NCBI GenBank assembly: GCA_015062525.1 | Contig: SUUM01000003.1 | Coordinates: forward strand, 24,012 to 88,011 | DNA: 64,000 nucleotides | From: Alphaproteobacteria bacterium | Lineage (GTDB): Bacteria; Pseudomonadota; Alphaproteobacteria; Rs-D84 | Reading direction: 5' to 3' | Shown: one piece after another, positions 3,283 through 51,654 of the stretch | How positions within the stretch are numbered: position 1 is the first letter of the stretch | Layout: each line of letters begins with the position of its first letter | The notes under the pieces: model-generated | The model's database searches: none | Seen by the model: only the letters and a program-made list of their open reading frames with translations | Told to the model about the DNA's origin: nothing | Position numbers and translations under genes: made by a program

Positions 3283-3669
3283 ATGAGAATAAATTTTCCA
3301 ACAATCTTGGTATCAATTTTCTTGGCGTCCTGCGCATCTGTCAACCGTGGCAGCATTGATGACGCAACTGTCCTGAACTGGGAAAACGAAGCGGTCACCA
3401 CCGAACAATTCGTTCGCGACCACAAAGCATGCCTTGGGATAACCAAGCCATCGCACCAGCCACGTTCCCGTATTGCAAAATTAATCGCCCCGAACCAGGC
3501 CGCAATTATGCCCGACTGGGATGGACTGTGGGTTACATTTCAGTCAAACGAATATCGCGACGTGGGCCAGCGCAGTTTAATGTCCGTTCCCCGCAATACC
3601 ACATCTAAATCGGTTGGCGCATACCGCAAATGTATGTTTCGACGTGGGTATTTATTGCGCGCTATGTAA
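3283..3669 (+). CDS. Hypothetical lipoprotein (128 aa)
   Basis: Signal peptide with lipobox (MRINFPTILVSIFLASCAS). Followed by a hairpin terminator. Confidence 0.5.
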   Translation: MRINFPTILVSIFLASCASVNRGSIDDATVLNWENEAVTTEQFVRDHKACLGITKPSHQPRSRIAKLIAPNQAAIMPDWDGLWVTFQSNEYRDVGQRSLMSVPRNTTSKSVGAYRKCMFRRGYLLRAM

Positions 3670-3794
3670 ATTGGAATATACACCTATACAAAACCAAGTC
3701 AAAATATCACATAATACAAAACGCGGACACTGCACGAACAAACCCAAAGGGCTTCTAGGGCCCCGAACCCACATCCCTAAATGCATTGTTTGCG

Positions 3795-20734: not shown

Positions 20735-20980
20735 TCATTTCCAAAAATGTCTTTTTGCGAATGCGTGTCCGGAACCCGTTTTAAGATATTGTTCAAAATC
20801 CAATGCAGCGTCTTTGGAACTAAACGCAAAATAATTTACCAATTCCCAAGGTTTATATTTTGCTGTATGTATTGAATATCCCGCATTATGTTGCTTTAAC
20901 CGCTGTTTCAAATCATCAGTTTGCCCGATGTATTTTTGTTCTGGACGGGAAATGCTTTTTATAAGATAGACATAAAACAT
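20735..20980 (-). CDS. GIY-YIG nuclease-family small protein (81 aa; UvrC-N-terminal-like)
   Basis: Motifs YVYLIKS…KYIGQTDDLKQRLKQHN. Located immediately beside tRNA-Gln. Confidence 0.85.
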   Translation of the reverse strand: MFYVYLIKSISRPEQKYIGQTDDLKQRLKQHNAGYSIHTAKYKPWELVNYFAFSSKDAALDFEQYLKTGSGHAFAKRHFWK

Positions 20981-21078
20981 TTACAAGTCCCCCTTCGTTA
21001 AAACTTCGGGCGACACTACTTCGCCTATGCTTCTCGCCTTGTGTGGCCTGCCACACGAAGCCTCGTAGAGGCGAAGTG

Positions 21079-21152
21079 TGGTTGGGGCGCACGGATTCGA
21101 ACCATGATAAAGAGAACCAAAATCTCTTGTCCTACCATTAGACGACACCCCA
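21079..21152 (-). tRNA. tRNA-Gln (anticodon UUG)
   Basis: 74-nt cloverleaf. U1-A72 acceptor pair and UGGGG start typical of bacterial tRNA-Gln. Anticodon loop TTTTGGT, T-loop TTCGAAT, encoded CCA. Confidence 0.8.
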
Positions 21153-24455: not shown

Positions 24456-25262
24456 TTATTGCATAAACTGTGTTGCGATACTGCCCAATGATTGCAAAGC
24501 ACCCATTCCACCACTGTTTGCAACCCCACCAACTGTTTGCATAATCGTCGCAGTATTGGTCTTTTGCCCCAAACCACCAACGGTATCAACCAAAAATTCA
24601 CCCCACAATGCTTTTTTCTTGGCGTTTAATTTTGCATACGAACAATTTTCAATCTTGGAAATCAACGTTCCGGCCATTTTTGCTTCTTGCTGGGTATAGT
24701 CCGCCGTATCAAAATCAATCAAATTAAACACATCATATATATTGGATACATACTGTTTATTTTTATCCGAACACCCGGTCAGAGAACCATCCGTACAATA
24801 ATAAGTACTGACCGCCATTGGGAACTTTTCCCAGACCATCCCGTCATTACCGCTGCCCCCAAACCAATCATAGCAGATTAAATCTTTTTCATCTGTCCCT
24901 TGGGCAATACGCGTGGTCGATTCATAACCACCCGTTGGCGTCGTACAGCGTTTCATACCCAATGATGTCTGAACTTCGTCCGCGGTCTTGGCACCTGTTT
25001 TTGCCCATTCTTTGATGGTATTATTCACAAAGGTTATTTCAGAACTGCTGGGGATACATTCAGCGGTCAACGCCTTTTGCTGTTGTGTTAATTGTTTAAC
25101 CCCACTGACCAGTCCCAAAACAGATCCAACCAAACTGGCTGTATTATCTGTGGTTGACGCTGCCTTGGTCGCAACGGGCGCGGCCTTTTTAATGGTAACA
25201 GCCATGGCAACATTCTGCGCCATGAATATGGTCCCAACAAAGAACAGTAAAAATTTCTTCAT
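24456..25262 (-). CDS. Secreted Cys-rich hypothetical protein (268 aa)
   Basis: Signal peptide MKKFLLFFVGTIFMAQNVAMA. 10 Cys. No catalytic motif recognised. Confidence 0.5.
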   Translation of the reverse strand: MKKFLLFFVGTIFMAQNVAMAVTIKKAAPVATKAASTTDNTASLVGSVLGLVSGVKQLTQQQKALTAECIPSSSEITFVNNTIKEWAKTGAKTADEVQTSLGMKRCTTPTGGYESTTRIAQGTDEKDLICYDWFGGSGNDGMVWEKFPMAVSTYYCTDGSLTGCSDKNKQYVSNIYDVFNLIDFDTADYTQQEAKMAGTLISKIENCSYAKLNAKKKALWGEFLVDTVGGLGQKTNTATIMQTVGGVANSGGMGALQSLGSIATQFMQ

Positions 25263-46519: not shown

Positions 46520-47188
46520 TTACTCACTTAAAAATGCTTCTTTTAATGCCACGTCAACTTCGGCGCCCGACAGTCCCGCCCCGCGCAAATAAAATACCTG
46601 GGCATCGGTTGGTTTGTAAATGCTTGCGCTGTGGTCGGCACGTTTGGGTTCTGATTTTATTCTTTGCCCCGGCATAAAATCAATTTTTGCACCCACGTCC
46701 GCCATCGCAACAAAAGCGATATCGGATTCGCACCCGTCGCAATCTTTATCAATTACCGCCATGCCTGACAATTTTGAATTTGAATTTTTCCCGGCTAAAA
46801 CTTTATTTTTTATCAAAATAGCCGTGTTTTTATACAAATGTCGCGCCCGACAATCATATGTTAAATCTGATTCATTATCTAAAAATACAGTTCCCGAAAT
46901 TTTAGAATTTTTCCCGGCGTTTTTAATAAAAATGTTCAAAATTGCCGGCTTTTTTATTTTTACATTTGCGCTGATAATAACTTCTTGGTTTTCCACACCA
47001 ACCAAAACATCCAACCGGTTTTCCCCGGCAATTTCACCAACATAGATAATATGAACCGGCAAATCATACTTTGTATTAATTGGCGCGTTTGGCAATGTTG
47101 ATAAATCAGCACAATAAACACCATCGCGGAAAACGATAGTTTCCGCAGGTCTGGTTTTTATGTTGAATTCGTTCCACATGTATGACAT
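46520..47188 (-). CDS. SufD/SufB-family-like protein, short form (222 aa). The CDS contains two in-frame copies of an intergenic hairpin repeat.
   Basis: C-terminus …AQVFYLRGAGLSGAEVDVALKEAFL resembles the conserved SufB/SufD C-terminus (…FYLRSRGI.EEA…GF). Beta-helix-like repeats present. Repeat copies at 46775-46835 and 46907-46960. Confidence 0.4.
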   Translation of the reverse strand: MSYMWNEFNIKTRPAETIVFRDGVYCADLSTLPNAPINTKYDLPVHIIYVGEIAGENRLDVLVGVENQEVIISANVKIKKPAILNIFIKNAGKNSKISGTVFLDNESDLTYDCRARHLYKNTAILIKNKVLAGKNSNSKLSGMAVIDKDCDGCESDIAFVAMADVGAKIDFMPGQRIKSEPKRADHSASIYKPTDAQVFYLRGAGLSGAEVDVALKEAFLSE

Positions 47189-48295: not shown

Positions 48296-48357
48296 TCCAC
48301 TTCGCTGGCGAAGGGGTGCCGGCGCCGCCGGCGGGGTAGTGGATAAATAAATATGTT

Positions 48358-48406
48358 AAAAATTTCCCGGCTTTTTTGATAAAAATGTTCAAAAAAGCCG
48401 GGATTT
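48358..48406. repeat. Hairpin repeat R1 (aaaaatttcccggcttttttgataaaaatgttcaaaaaagccggg). Second intergenic copy at 49946-49990. Degenerate in-frame copies inside the CDS at 46520-47188.
   Basis: Near-identical 45-bp copies, each abutting a gene 3' end (OMP gene, dnaG), where they act as terminator-like hairpins. Confidence 0.85.
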
Positions 48407-48410
48407 TTAT

Positions 48411-48992
48411 TTAGAAACGATAACCGATACTTGTTGTTAACTTGAAACCAGATGTATCAACAGAATATTCATATCCATTTACATTTGTTTCAAAATTCAT
48501 AGATTGATACTCTATTCCCGCTTTGATGTTCATATTGTCATTAAAGTTATATTTAATACCCGCACCAATGCCGTATGCGTATGCGGTGTCATCAAAATTT
48601 ATACTGCCGTCATCATATTCCATGCTGGCAAAACCTAATTCGGCCATAACATATGGTTGAATATCATTATCCATAAATGGAACGACCGCACGAACATTTA
48701 ATGCCAATATTTCTTCTGTGTCCGAATCTGAATATTCCGGTGCAAAACCAATTTGTACACCATCAAAATCTGCACCAATATAAGCTATACCACCACCATT
48801 AAATGCTGATGCATCTGCTTCGCCAACTTTTTCACCTTCTATTTCATAATCCGTCGAAGAATTTGAATATAGACTTATGCCATATTCGACAAAGAATCGT
48901 GGATTAAATTTATTTTGTTCTTGTATATTTTCTGAAGCAAAAGAAGCGATTGGTAAAAAAGCCAATGCGGCGATAATTGAAATTTTTTTCAT
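48411..48992 (-). CDS. Small outer-membrane beta-barrel protein (paralog of the ORF at 41815-42402)
   Basis: Signal peptide MKKISIIAALAFLPIASFAS. C-terminal …TTSIGYRF. Confidence 0.6.
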   Translation of the reverse strand: MKKISIIAALAFLPIASFASENIQEQNKFNPRFFVEYGISLYSNSSTDYEIEGEKVGEADASAFNGGGIAYIGADFDGVQIGFAPEYSDSDTEEILALNVRAVVPFMDNDIQPYVMAELGFASMEYDDGSINFDDTAYAYGIGAGIKYNFNDNMNIKAGIEYQSMNFETNVNGYEYSVDTSGFKLTTSIGYRF

Positions 48993-49260
48993 ACATTCCC
49001 CTTTTTATTAAAAATTAAACCGTCAGAAATGACGGTTGGGGTGGTTCATAAATCGCTTTGTCATCGATTCTGTTGATTTTTTATTTTCCTGTATTTTATA
49101 TATCAACACCCCCCGACCAAAGTCGGGGATTTGCGGTCTTAATTACACCGGACAAAGCAATCCTACGACAGCCCCAAACCCACATCCCTGTGGATTCAGC
49201 ATAAATTATACCACAAAAACAAACATTTTTAATATTTTGAAAATAAAAATCCTTTCACAT

Positions 49261-49285
49261 CGTCACCCCGACGCAGGTCGGGGTC
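49261..49285. repeat. Left 25-bp inverted repeat (cgtcaccccgacgcaggtcggggtc) flanking the GIY-YIG gene. Exact reverse complement at 49680-49704.
   Basis: Perfect reverse-complement match. Each arm is itself a palindrome (ccccgac gcag gtcgggg). A third copy at 49857-49925 is split by a nested 42-bp palindromic insert, and a solo copy of that insert lies at 49758-49796. Confidence 0.85.
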
Positions 49286-49343
49286 TATTGCGTTCCTGAT
49301 ACCACTTGCGCTGGAAAATAAAAAACAATAAAATTAAATCATT

Positions 49344-49661
49344 ATGAAATCTGGTGGTTGGGTATATATTTTATCGAATAAAAAAATGGGGACTTTGTAT
49401 GTTGGCTCTACAACTGATTTGATTGGGCGCACGTGGCAGCACAAGCATCATGAAATACCTGGTTTTACATCAAGATATAATGTTGATAAATTGGTTTATT
49501 ATGAATGGCATGACAGTCTAAGAAATATGGTCACACGTGAGCGTCAAATCAAAGAATGGCACCGTTCATGGAAATTAAGATTGATAATAAACTTTAATCC
49601 AGATTGGTGTGATTTGTATAATGATTTATTAATTCAATCTGGTTACAGCCCAGAATATTAA
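49344..49661 (+). CDS. GIY-YIG nuclease-family small protein (105 aa)
   Basis: WVYILSNKKMGTLYVGSTTDLIGRTWQHK matches the GIY-YIG core. Flanked by 25-bp inverted repeats. Confidence 0.8.
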   Translation: MKSGGWVYILSNKKMGTLYVGSTTDLIGRTWQHKHHEIPGFTSRYNVDKLVYYEWHDSLRNMVTRERQIKEWHRSWKLRLIINFNPDWCDLYNDLLIQSGYSPEY

Positions 49662-50034
49662 AAAAAGTTGAATACAGTGGACCCCGACCTGCGTCGGGGT
49701 GACGATAACTTTTTATATGAACAATAGTATAATATTACAAGACCTTGTCATACCAGCATCGGGTCCGGCAAAAATTGAAAATTTTTGTGGATGATACGGG
49801 CGATTAATATTAAAGATTGCAGTTTTGTGGATTTGGTAAATAAAAGTAAAAAAGAAGTCGTCACCCCGACTTCGGGTCCCGCAAAAATTGAAAATTTTTG
49901 TGGGTGATACTAGGTCGGGGTCCATTGTGTTCTGGTTAATTTGTTAAAAATTTCCCGGCTTTTTTGATAAAAATGTTCAAAAAAGCCGGGAAATTATTTT
50001 TGCCACCACTAACCACTTGCACTAACACTAATCA

Positions 50035-51654
50035 CTAAATAGAAATCAATACTTCTAATTTCTCATTAAATTTTTCAATTTCCGAATCTATGCGCTTGAT
50101 TTCATCGCGTGCCGTATCATCCCCCGCCAACAGTTGCGTGGTTAATTCGCGTTTTTGTGCATTCAGTTTTTCCAGATACCTTTGCAACTTTAATGATACA
50201 AGGTATTTTTCCGCCCCATTTATATCCATATTTAATTCGGGCGCCGTCCCATCAAAATCCACCCCCAGTGTCCCCAAAAATTCCAAATACCGTTCCGCCA
50301 GTTCCGGATATTTGTTCACAATATAAACCAGCGTATTTTTAGTAATCACATCAATATCAGGCAATTTTATGTTGACTGTTTTTGGCGCACGTCTCCAACT
50401 GTGCCAATTTTGGAATTTGCGTTTTTCATATTCTTGCTTGTATTGCTTGCGCAGTTCTGGGTCGGCTATTTTTTCAATTTGAGCGTCCAAAAATTTTTCC
50501 GCCTGGGTCCGTCCACCCGGTGTGGACACAACATAGTTTTTGTTTGTTAATTCCCACAGAAAATCAGTCAGATTCATCGCGTCATCAATGATTTTCCGCA
50601 TGGCATCCGCGCCGGATGTTTTCAGAATTTCATCCGGGTCCTTGCCCCCACTAACAAACGCAAATTTAACATCCGATGTATCACGAATAAACGGCATAAC
50701 TATGTTGCAGGCACGCGCGGCGGCCTTTTGCCCGGCCGCGTCCCCGTCAAAACAGAATGTTATATTTCGATTTGATTTACACAGCAACGCGATATGATCT
50801 TCGGTCAATGCGGTCCCCAGTGGCGCGACGGTTTCGCCGAATCCATTTACCTGCATTTTAATTGCGTCAATTTGTCCTTCGACAACGATGCTGCGATTTG
50901 CGCGATGAATTGCTTCGCGTGCAAAGTTAAAACCAAACACAGTCTGACGTTTATGGAATATATCAGTATCAGTTGTGTTTATATACTTTGGTTCAGACCC
51001 ATCCAGCGAACGCCCTGAAAACGCAACAACCTTGCCGTGTGCATTGAAAATTGGGAACATTAATTTATCACGGAAAAAATCATACATCCCATAATCGCCA
51101 CGCCGACACAGACCAGATGGTATCAAAAATTTAGATTCTGCAAATTTGTTCGCGATGATATTATTTTTTGGCGCATACCCGATACGATATTTTTTTATTT
51201 CTTCATCTGAAAAACCGCGTCTACGCACATATTCCAGCGCATGCGCCGCGTCGGGTGTGAATAATTTTTCGGCATATGTTTGCGCCGCGCGTTCACAAAT
51301 ATCAAATAACGCGTCTTCGCGTTTGACAACATTCGGGTCGCGTGGTTTATAGTCTGGCATTTTCAGACCCGCCATATTGGCCAGTTCCGCAATCGCCGAT
51401 TTGAAATCCATATTATTATGCTTCATGGTGAACGATATGATATCGCCATGCTCACCGCACCCAAAGCAGTGATAAAATCCCTTTTCTTCGTTCACGGAAA
51501 AACTGGGGGTTTTTTCATTATGAAACGGACAGCACCCCCAGTAATTTTGTCCCTTTTTATTCAATGGCACGACGCGTCCCACAACATCCACCACCGACAA
51601 CCGCGCCCGCAGTTCATCTGTGAAATTGGAATAGTTGTGTCGTCCTGGCGCCAT
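50035..51654 (-). CDS. dnaG: DNA primase
   Basis: Zinc-binding CCPFHNEKTPSFSVNEEKGFYHCFGCGEHGD, a Toprim domain, and a C-terminal helicase-interaction region. 539 aa. Confidence 0.95.
   Translation of the reverse strand: MAPGRHNYSNFTDELRARLSVVDVVGRVVPLNKKGQNYWGCCPFHNEKTPSFSVNEEKGFYHCFGCGEHGDIISFTMKHNNMDFKSAIAELANMAGLKMPDYKPRDPNVVKREDALFDICERAAQTYAEKLFTPDAAHALEYVRRRGFSDEEIKKYRIGYAPKNNIIANKFAESKFLIPSGLCRRGDYGMYDFFRDKLMFPIFNAHGKVVAFSGRSLDGSEPKYINTTDTDIFHKRQTVFGFNFAREAIHRANRSIVVEGQIDAIKMQVNGFGETVAPLGTALTEDHIALLCKSNRNITFCFDGDAAGQKAAARACNIVMPFIRDTSDVKFAFVSGGKDPDEILKTSGADAMRKIIDDAMNLTDFLWELTNKNYVVSTPGGRTQAEKFLDAQIEKIADPELRKQYKQEYEKRKFQNWHSWRRAPKTVNIKLPDIDVITKNTLVYIVNKYPELAERYLEFLGTLGVDFDGTAPELNMDINGAEKYLVSLKLQRYLEKLNAQKRELTTQLLAGDDTARDEIKRIDSEIEKFNEKLEVLISI

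Follow-up and report, generated by a model that had tools for sequence, protein, structure and literature searches.

The Ssn family comprises single-domain GIY-YIG proteins of ~94 aa (CDD cd10448, GIY-YIG_unchar_3) that bind the NTS hairpin CGTCATTCCCGCGMAVGCGGGAATCYRG, which contains the Neisseria dRS3 repeat, solely as single-stranded DNA (ssDNA), and that cut a few nucleotides upstream (5') of the hairpin without acting on double-stranded DNA (dsDNA) or RNA (Chenal et al., Nat Commun 2025;16:2388, PMC11893778). Site-specific ssDNA cleavage has been demonstrated for four homologs; the SsnA mutants Y6A, Y17A, and E64A keep binding and lose cutting, and the nucleotides directly 5' of the palindrome control cutting while the C directly 3' of it controls binding (PMC11893778). 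The ssnA genes are typically bracketed by inverted "Ssn-related motifs" (SRM), found on at least one side of 71% and on both sides of 42% of them, and SsnA of Neisseria meningitidis (Nm) reduces transformation by NTS-bearing DNA (PMC11893778). We analyzed a stretch of 64,000 nt from an Alphaproteobacteria bacterium (GCA_015062525.1, SUUM01000003.1; G+C 42.5%), hereafter the window, in which a gene for a small GIY-YIG protein lies between two inverted, CGTC-tagged hairpins. The window stems from an uncultured organism and is contained unchanged in JGI metagenome contig Ga0318466_10000070. The region around the GIY-YIG gene very probably is an SRM-ssn-SRM locus, in which an Ssn nuclease is bracketed by its cognate hairpins, and the locus is a further member of the Ssn/SRM kind already described in 2025.

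The core of the locus is made up of three elements.

49261-49285, + strand: SRM-L, consisting of a CGTC tag (49261-64), stem ACCCCGAC (49265-72), loop GCAG (49273-76), stem GTCGGGGT (49277-84), and a final C (49285)
49344-49661, + strand: ssn gene, whose 105-aa product is an Ssn-family protein with a single GIY-YIG domain, as assigned from Pfam, BLASTP, AlphaFold2, and the ratio of nonsynonymous to synonymous substitution rates (dN/dS)
49680-49704, - strand: SRM-R, the exact reverse complement of SRM-L, tag outward

The assignment of the protein rests on several agreeing comparisons. The Pfam domain PF01541 (GIY-YIG) covers residues 5-78 of the 105-aa protein (E=9.4e-15). Our reference SsnA was the 94-aa N. 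gonorrhoeae ortholog, not the meningococcal protein itself; it has Y6, Y17, and E64, its gene is surrounded by NTS repeats, and it comes from a chromosome filed among plasmids (the PLSDB entries NZ_CP119140.1 and NZ_CP119142.1 are 2.17-Mb N. gonorrhoeae chromosomes filed as plasmids, a database labelling error). The window protein matched the N. gonorrhoeae chromosome at E=3e-24 by tblastn, and by BLASTP 46 of 90 residues (51%) were identical to the gonococcal ortholog in an ungapped alignment over 90 aa (E=7e-35), well below the E < 1e-10 to Neisseria SsnA by which homology to the family was judged in Chenal et al. 2025, the gonococcal ortholog being the protein compared here. Residues Y8, Y19, and E66 are in register with Y6, Y17, and E64 of that ortholog and are invariant across 17 homologs; the window protein extends 2 aa further at the N-terminus and ~9 aa further at the C-terminus. 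The AlphaFold2 model (pLDDT 94.4) forms one compact domain with the GIY-YIG fold, whose structure matches in the PDB were UPF0213 BH0048, Slx1, the UvrC N-terminal domain, and I-TevI, with 1zg2 and Slx1 the closest. A PDB search by sequence gave no match, hence no solved Ssn structure was found, and NCBIfam has no model specific to the window protein. The dN/dS of the ssn gene was 0.05-0.15, indicating strong purifying selection.

The preliminary description of this DNA had placed a GIY-YIG open reading frame (ORF) between perfect 25-nt inverted repeats, each arm a palindrome in its own right, and both statements were confirmed. The 25-mer CGTCACCCCGACGCAGGTCGGGGTC occurs exactly twice in the 64 kb, at 49261-49285 (+) and 49680-49704 (-), and was matched in 0 of 100 shuffles. 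As ssDNA, each arm forms a hairpin of -9.4 kcal/mol in which ACCCCGAC pairs with GTCGGGGT over 8 bp around a GCAG loop, and the tails are CTA on the left and CCA on the right. The inverted repeat extends to 37 nt with 89% complementarity (49259-49295 versus 49670-49706), and the unit measured from tag to tag (CGTC to CGTC) is 444 bp. SRM-R begins 18 nt past the ssn stop codon, and ~20 nt separate SRM-L from the inferred -35 element that follows it. A generic geometry search of the window (GTC, a perfect 7-8-bp stem, a 4-6-nt loop, the second stem, and C) recovered just these two arms, against an expectation of 0.05 per shuffle. Scanned at the Rfam gathering threshold, the whole 64 kb yielded four tRNAs and nothing else, and at permissive settings Rfam returned nothing for 48950-50100 beyond miRNA-like hairpin noise below threshold.

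The arms have the same layout as the Neisseria NTS, which reads CGTC, ATTCCCGC, GMAV, GCGGGAAT, C, since they too consist of CGTC, 8 nt, GCAG (which fits GMAV), 8 nt, and C. Four of the 8 stem positions differ from the NTS, each with a compensating change, and for this reason the published degenerate SRM motif (HGTCWYN(0-2)YYVSBRHN(0-5)WNVSBRGN(0-2)RNCYNB; Chenal et al. 2025), which is a search tool and not a definition of the family, misses them.

The same association of gene and hairpin was seen well beyond the window. We surveyed 80 homolog loci from many phyla, with proteins 45-76% identical, and examined their flanks to 300 nt. The published SRM motif was present on any side in 58 of 80 loci (72%) and on both sides in 35 (44%), so that the survey reproduces the published association with the published motif; the generic hairpin geometry was found on any side in 75 of 80 and on both sides in 59 of 80. 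Tags pointed outward, with + to - counts of 68:24 upstream and - to + counts of 72:28 downstream. Hairpin density was 4.05 per kb within 300 nt of the genes compared to 0.33 per kb farther off. An inverted repeat between upstream and downstream flanks scored at least 17 in 62 of 80 loci (shuffle maxima 8-13), its arm almost always being of type CGTCATTCCCGCGNAGGCGGGAATCCAG. When sites were chosen solely on tag and tail, and Watson-Crick pairing of the 8 stem positions was scored afterwards, at least 7 of 8 pairs formed at 79 of 97 sites near genes versus 12 of 92 far away, with compensatory pair types at stem positions 1, 2, 3, and 6. Together, these results show that ssn and its inverted hairpins are a real unit and a family trait across phyla.

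By analogy with the characterized relatives, we infer that this protein cuts these hairpins. The 105-aa protein would bind the CGTC-tagged hairpin on single-stranded DNA and cleave that strand a short way, a few nucleotides, to the 5' side of the tag, the two inverted repeats serving as cognate hairpins, one per strand, with tags outward. Because there is one outward-tagged hairpin per strand, either strand, once single-stranded, would carry a single site for cleavage immediately beyond the 444-bp cassette; going by the Neisseria enzyme, the cuts are predicted near 49256-49260 (+ strand) and near 49705-49709 (- strand). The preliminary suggestion that the repeats might be protected targets does not fit what is known of the characterized relatives, in which the hairpins are the recognition sites beside which the enzyme cuts. 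A further, split repeat and a half repeat downstream, described below, are on this reading extra or decayed copies of the SRM motif, and recombination or breakage at the hairpins could give rise to local structural polymorphism, such as deletion between repeats and new neighbours from the tags outward.

Several observations weigh against this interpretation. Nm SsnA lost its activity when the palindrome was altered with the hairpin kept (PMC11893778), so that recognition of these particular hairpins by the window protein is assumed. Neither the published SRM motif nor the NTS consensus matches anywhere in the 64-kb window. Among the loci from other sequences, including clade relatives, that we compared with the window (numbered L003, L007, and so on), L003-L006 encode the identical protein but have an upstream arm with a different stem, ATACCGGC. 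Finally, no genome-wide hairpin set was evident in ~169 kb of clade DNA, in which intact hairpins were confined to ssn cassettes, and no intact hairpin was present in 54 kb of ssn-less loci from relatives; restriction of transformation of the Neisseria type may not apply here. At the loci encoding an identical or 83-90% identical protein, all bear flanking inverted hairpins, and the stems (ACCCCGAC, ATACCGGC, and ATCCCGGC) co-vary within a fixed frame, CGTC ... TC(C/T)ATTG.

The stem variant of the window is not restricted to this clade. A metagenome scan for GTCACCCCGACNNNNGTCGGGGT returned, among the matches listed, unrelated and mostly high-GC contigs, in which the ACCCCGAC variant was widespread and properly tagged; among the same listed matches it was preceded by C in 68 of 81 and followed by C in 74 of 81, with CCAG mostly coming after. 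The ACCCCGAC stem is thus a hairpin variant that escapes the published motif yet is widespread in metagenomes, and for both reasons the Ssn repeat repertoire is under-counted. New enzyme/hairpin pairs become available as ssDNA tools, and one protein with two stem types could help to define the hairpin positions that the enzyme reads. The signature of a nuclease family characterized only in 2025 was, in this case, picked out from raw sequence. Clade-type SRMs were also found in 94 viral or proviral stretches (IMG/VR loci L232-L311), several of which (e.g., L242, L246, L247, L264, and L282) have pairs of a + and then a - SRM, with starts ~50-80 nt apart and no gene between them, a REPIN-like layout.

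Upstream of the gene, a promoter can be read from the sequence.

49306-49334, + strand: putative ssn promoter, with -35 TTGCGC (49306-11), a 17-nt spacer, and -10 TAAAAT (49329-34)

A consensus promoter scan did not call the TTGCGC/TAAAAT element; the layout is kept in L010 as TTGCGC, 17 nt, and TATAAT. Its place directly before the ATG suggests that the ssn mRNA may be near-leaderless.

Downstream of SRM-R lies a repeat zone with two more SRM-derived elements.

49746-49797, + strand: truncated split SRM, with TGTC and left stem ATACCAGC (49746-57) and a copy of the insert (49758-97), lacking the right stem
49859-49922, + strand: third SRM, its loop split by a 41-nt hairpin insert (49871-49911)

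The third SRM had been described as a copy interrupted by a palindromic insert, which is correct, with limits of 49859-49922 rather than 49857-49925. It consists of CGTC and ACCCCGAC (49859-49870), the insert, and AG, GTCGGGGT, and C (49912-49922). Folded as ssDNA, it keeps its stem pairing, with the inner hairpin enclosed (-17.2 kcal/mol, z=-4.0), and since loop extensions are tolerated in vitro by Nm SsnA (Chenal et al. 2025, PMC11893778), it may remain a site. The second insert had been thought to stand alone at 49758-49796; it ends at 49797 and is preceded by the degenerate left half TGTC-ATACCAGC (49746-49757), and the 59-nt stretch 49739-49797 is an 83% identical direct copy of 49852-49910. 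This truncated SRM has the stem type ATACCGGC, which also forms the arm upstream of ssn in L003-L006. The zone also varies between close relatives: L005 is without the 221-bp repeat zone including the insert, a tagless 42-nt palindrome remaining, and this loss is consistent with a deletion between direct GTCGGGGT repeats. Another hairpin insert, of ~39 nt, is present in the upstream SRM loop of L221 and L224 and absent from L223, which encodes the same protein. In L229/L230 (2070-3170) ssn is preceded by four to five arrayed SRM-like units, long inserts occupying some of their loops, and followed by a solo SRM, directly after which comes a 3' fragment of an outer membrane protein (OMP) gene ending in ...SIGYRF, like the OMP of the window, an arrangement resembling the Neisseria mosaic repeat arrays that adjoin membrane-protein genes.

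The preliminary description had asked for a check of presence or absence of the cassette across strains, and such polymorphism was found: in relatives the cassette is absent from the ychF-dnaG site or sited elsewhere. The gene orders observed were as follows.

Window: ychF, OMP, ssn, dnaG
L007: ychF, ssn, dnaG
L010 and L229: L36, ssn, ..., ychF
L221: sufBD, ssn, L36
L225: PPDK, ssn, PagL

The ychF-dnaG site is empty in relatives with 90-93% identical YchF, and in L216 it is occupied by rmlC/rmlD. Measured from tag to tag, the window, L007, and L009 have units of 444 bp and L010, L011, and L229 units of 443 bp; the unit of L223 is 423 bp and that of L225 is 449 bp. Across differing contexts identity fell from 0.74/0.66 directly within the tags to 0.29/0.33 directly beyond them, and similarity of the window cassette to cassettes in other contexts ends exactly at the SRM-R tag. 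Loci encoding the same protein may have flanks that diverge from the tag outward (L007 versus L009; L010 versus L013). The divergence of cassette and backbone was also discordant. Compared to L221, the backbone of the window is 88-91% identical (YchF synonymous divergence, dS, 0.33) and ssn is 74% identical and at a different site; compared to L007, the backbone is 79-80% identical (YchF dS 1.45) and the cassettes, at the same site, are 87% identical (ssn dS 0.65).

A direct repeat of 63 nt bounds the segment that runs from the OMP gene and its leader through the ssn cassette to the repeat zone.

48350-48412, + strand: left copy of the direct repeat (63 nt), located downstream of ychF as a hairpin terminator
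49938-50000, + strand: right copy of the direct repeat (63 nt), a hairpin terminator that dnaG shares

The two copies are 92% identical with an identical 50-nt core, the equivalent direct repeat flanking the L007 cassette is 55 nt, and empty ychF-dnaG sites have a single copy. A search for target-site duplications had been proposed, and these 55-63-nt repeats are real; their hairpin belongs to a family dispersed in clade genomes, so that they need not be target-site duplications and are suggestive only. The traits of an insertion sequence (IS) seen at the locus are terminal inverted repeats and an ambiguous 55-63-nt direct repeat, with a single copy and no known transposase fold; no second cassette copy was found in the 64 kb.

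The signs of mobility at this locus are suggestive. Empty and filled sites with flanks changing at the tags, similarity discordant with the backbone, and recurrent hairpin inserts in SRM loops lead us to the tentative reading, which we hold to be somewhat unlikely, that the 444-bp unit is a mobile cassette, having changed place inside and among the genomes of this gut alphaproteobacterial clade. The earlier proposal of a mobile nuclease cassette thus holds for the IS-like look and for presence/absence and positional polymorphism in close relatives. If true, Ssn/SRM would be a GIY-YIG-based counterpart of the IS200/IS605-RAYT/REPIN elements, and the locus would provide the first natural-population evidence for a mobility that those who described the family raised only as a hypothesis (Chenal et al. 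2025, PMC11893778). Our literature search found no follow-up on Ssn mobility. Because it offers a cassette without genome-wide hairpin expansion, empty sites, and shifted positions, the clade is a clean place to test SRM-ssn-SRM movement.

A stronger form of this proposal is that the 444-bp unit is a currently active selfish cassette, IS-like or RAYT/REPIN-like, for which Ssn cleavage at the outward tags would be the start, and it is in keeping with what the authors of the family paper propose (PMC11893778). The 37-nt terminal inverted repeats, the near-constant 443-444-bp unit with identity falling outside the tags, the occurrence in at least five contexts in one clade together with empty ychF-dnaG sites, the identical proteins in flanks that differ from the tag (L007 versus L009, L010 versus L013), the 55-63-nt direct repeat around the insert versus one copy at empty sites, and a similarity of 87% to L007 (backbone 79%) and of 74% to L221 (backbone 88-91%) all point in this direction. 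We nevertheless regard it as unlikely, given one copy per locus with no second in 64 kb, strong purifying selection on ssn, and, in contrast to IS200/IS605, a pair of predicted cut sites that would fall on opposite strands. The direct repeat at the flanks comes from a dispersed hairpin family, the rmlC/rmlD genes at the same intergenic site in L216 point to a general recombination hot spot, and the discordant similarity is based on few kb of backbone. To our knowledge, GIY-YIG enzymes hydrolyse DNA, and we know of no strand transfer by them, which also counts against an active cassette. A free-standing GIY-YIG homing endonuclease, which would cut a cassette-less dsDNA target and then be copied in, is a very improbable reading of the same presence/absence polymorphism at ychF-dnaG and of the GIY-YIG domain. 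The protein is a single 105-aa domain without a DNA-binding domain and scored 18 bits against the group I intron endonuclease model TIGR01453, whose cut-off is 56; the site is chromosomal and intergenic, with no intron, intein, or phage context, and a search of 50,697 phage records gave 0 matches to ssn. The characterized homologs, moreover, leave dsDNA uncut and cleave ssDNA only (PMC11893778), and the preliminary suggestion of a homing-endonuclease-like selfish element is accordingly abandoned.

The hairpins themselves might be mainly transcription signals, acting upstream as operator or insulator and downstream as terminator, with their inverted symmetry a by-product. The short distances of SRM-R from the stop codon and of SRM-L from the inferred -35 would suit such roles, and a weak terminator-like site overlaps SRM-R at 49692-49704. 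No T-run directly follows the SRM-R stem, however, and the CGTC tag and 3' C, needless in a plain terminator, are conserved across phyla; the motif is also dispersed far from ssn in other genomes, and the relatives bind it as ssDNA with no action on RNA (PMC11893778). This explanation is therefore improbable. It had also been considered that the gene is flanked by chance, because a REP family is abundant genome-wide, as CGTC-tagged REPs are in many Alphaproteobacteria (Di Nocera et al. 2013). Both intact copies in the 64 kb lie at ssn, the 54 kb of ssn-less loci from relatives have none, intact repeats within clade DNA occur only at the cassette, and hairpins are far denser near the 80 homologs than at a distance from them. 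Flanking by chance, its probability close to nil, is refuted for the DNA examined. The SRM-ssn-SRM reading remains the one that we favor.

The window holds another GIY-YIG gene, which the preliminary description had taken for a paralog abutting a tRNA.

20735-20980, - strand: Slx1/UPF0213-type GIY-YIG ORF, 81 aa, assigned by its structure match to Slx1/UPF0213

The ORF exists, 98 nt from tRNA-Gln, and is not an Ssn paralog: it matched SsnA at only E=1e-5 in a gapped alignment and has no tagged hairpins. Being Slx1/UPF0213-like and not Ssn, it makes the paralog comparison uninformative. Within the region 20735-21152, which takes in this ORF, the spacer towards tRNA-Gln is rich in short inverted repeats. 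A third GIY-YIG candidate at 24617-24709, a weak tblastn match (E=0.016) antisense to a 268-aa ORF, was dismissed.

An extended -10 promoter (49232-49205) precedes the neighbouring OMP gene (48411-48992, -), whose leader of ~205 nt falls within 48993-49232 on the - strand; a terminator-like hairpin (49037-49018) closes the leader ~25 nt ahead of the start codon. The leader contains one hairpin with SRM stem sequence.

49111-49128, strand not assigned: untagged hairpin CCCCGAC-CAAA-GTCGGGG within the OMP gene leader, -8.6 kcal/mol, conserved in L003-L006

Lacking a CGTC tag, this hairpin was left out of the SRM count. A 153-aa ORF follows the same leader in L010 (leader region 3473-3716) and L011, and the window OMP and the 153-aa ORF beside the L010 ssn are not homologous. 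Four sequences from two lineages gave a consensus fold of the leader with 45 pairs, of which 10 show compensatory changes, and no Rfam family matched; the leader may be an attenuator or riboswitch-like element for envelope protein genes. Two further repeats were noted. A hairpin family, CCGGCTTTTTTGATAAAAATGTTCAAAAAAGCCGG, with a conserved loop, has copies in the window (46914-46948, 48367-48401, and 49955-49989) and several in L007, L010, and L214-L220, and stands at bidirectional-terminator positions; one conserved copy of the family lies inside a SufBD-like coding sequence (46520-47188, -), where it encodes PAILNIFIKNAG. The motif CACTAAYCACTAA occurs 7 times versus 0.16 expected (window 26598, 36546, 36559, 36627, 43225, 46435, and 50026), often as tandem heptamers at gene ends, and also adjoins the ssn loci L010, L012, and L229.

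The locus was also set against known systems. The Slx1/UPF0213 proteins (YhbQ, BH0048) provide the nearest solved folds to the Ssn model (1zg2 and Slx1), and their genes, including the one at 20735-20980, are without flanking hairpins. With I-TevI-type homing endonucleases the window protein has the catalytic fold in common; it differs in having no DNA-binding domain and no intron or phage context, and the substrates of those enzymes are dsDNA versus ssDNA in the Ssn relatives. The RAYT/REPIN system, built on domesticated IS200/IS605 Y1 transposases, resembles the locus in arrangement, comprising a single-copy nuclease gene between inverted copies of the ssDNA hairpin that it recognizes, vertical maintenance under purifying selection, and head-to-head hairpin doublets elsewhere. 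It differs in its enzyme, an HUH/Y1 transesterase of the IS200/IS605 type versus a GIY-YIG hydrolase, and in its tag, GTAG versus CGTC, and there is no evidence of Ssn copying its hairpins.

The repeats resemble a known group, the CGTC-1 set of CGTC-tagged REPs, which includes Neisseria dRS3 and rickettsial RPE-6 and for which no dedicated enzyme was found at the time (Di Nocera et al., BMC Genomics 2013;14:522). They share with these the CGTC tag, the 8-bp stem, a loop of 4 nt, a short tail like CCA, and an arrangement in oppositely oriented pairs, and differ in that the second stem pair is C-G in the window versus a near-invariant T-A, which in CGTC-1 follows A-T as the first pair (C-G was seen at only 6 of 97 sites near ssn homologs), in their low copy number (2 intact in 64 kb) versus a high one, and in bracketing the ssn gene. 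The closest system is Ssn/NTS (Chenal et al. 2025). From it the window locus differs in its stem (ACCCCGAC versus Neisseria ATTCCCGC), in showing no genome-wide expansion, in having two stem types with one protein, and in the length of the protein, which at 105 aa is extended at both ends and whose activity is predicted. It shares with Ssn/NTS a single-domain GIY-YIG protein of ~100 aa, 51% identical and with the catalytic Y/Y/E in register, and inverted CGTC-tagged hairpins with the 4+8+4+8+1 layout, a GMAV loop, and tags that point outward.

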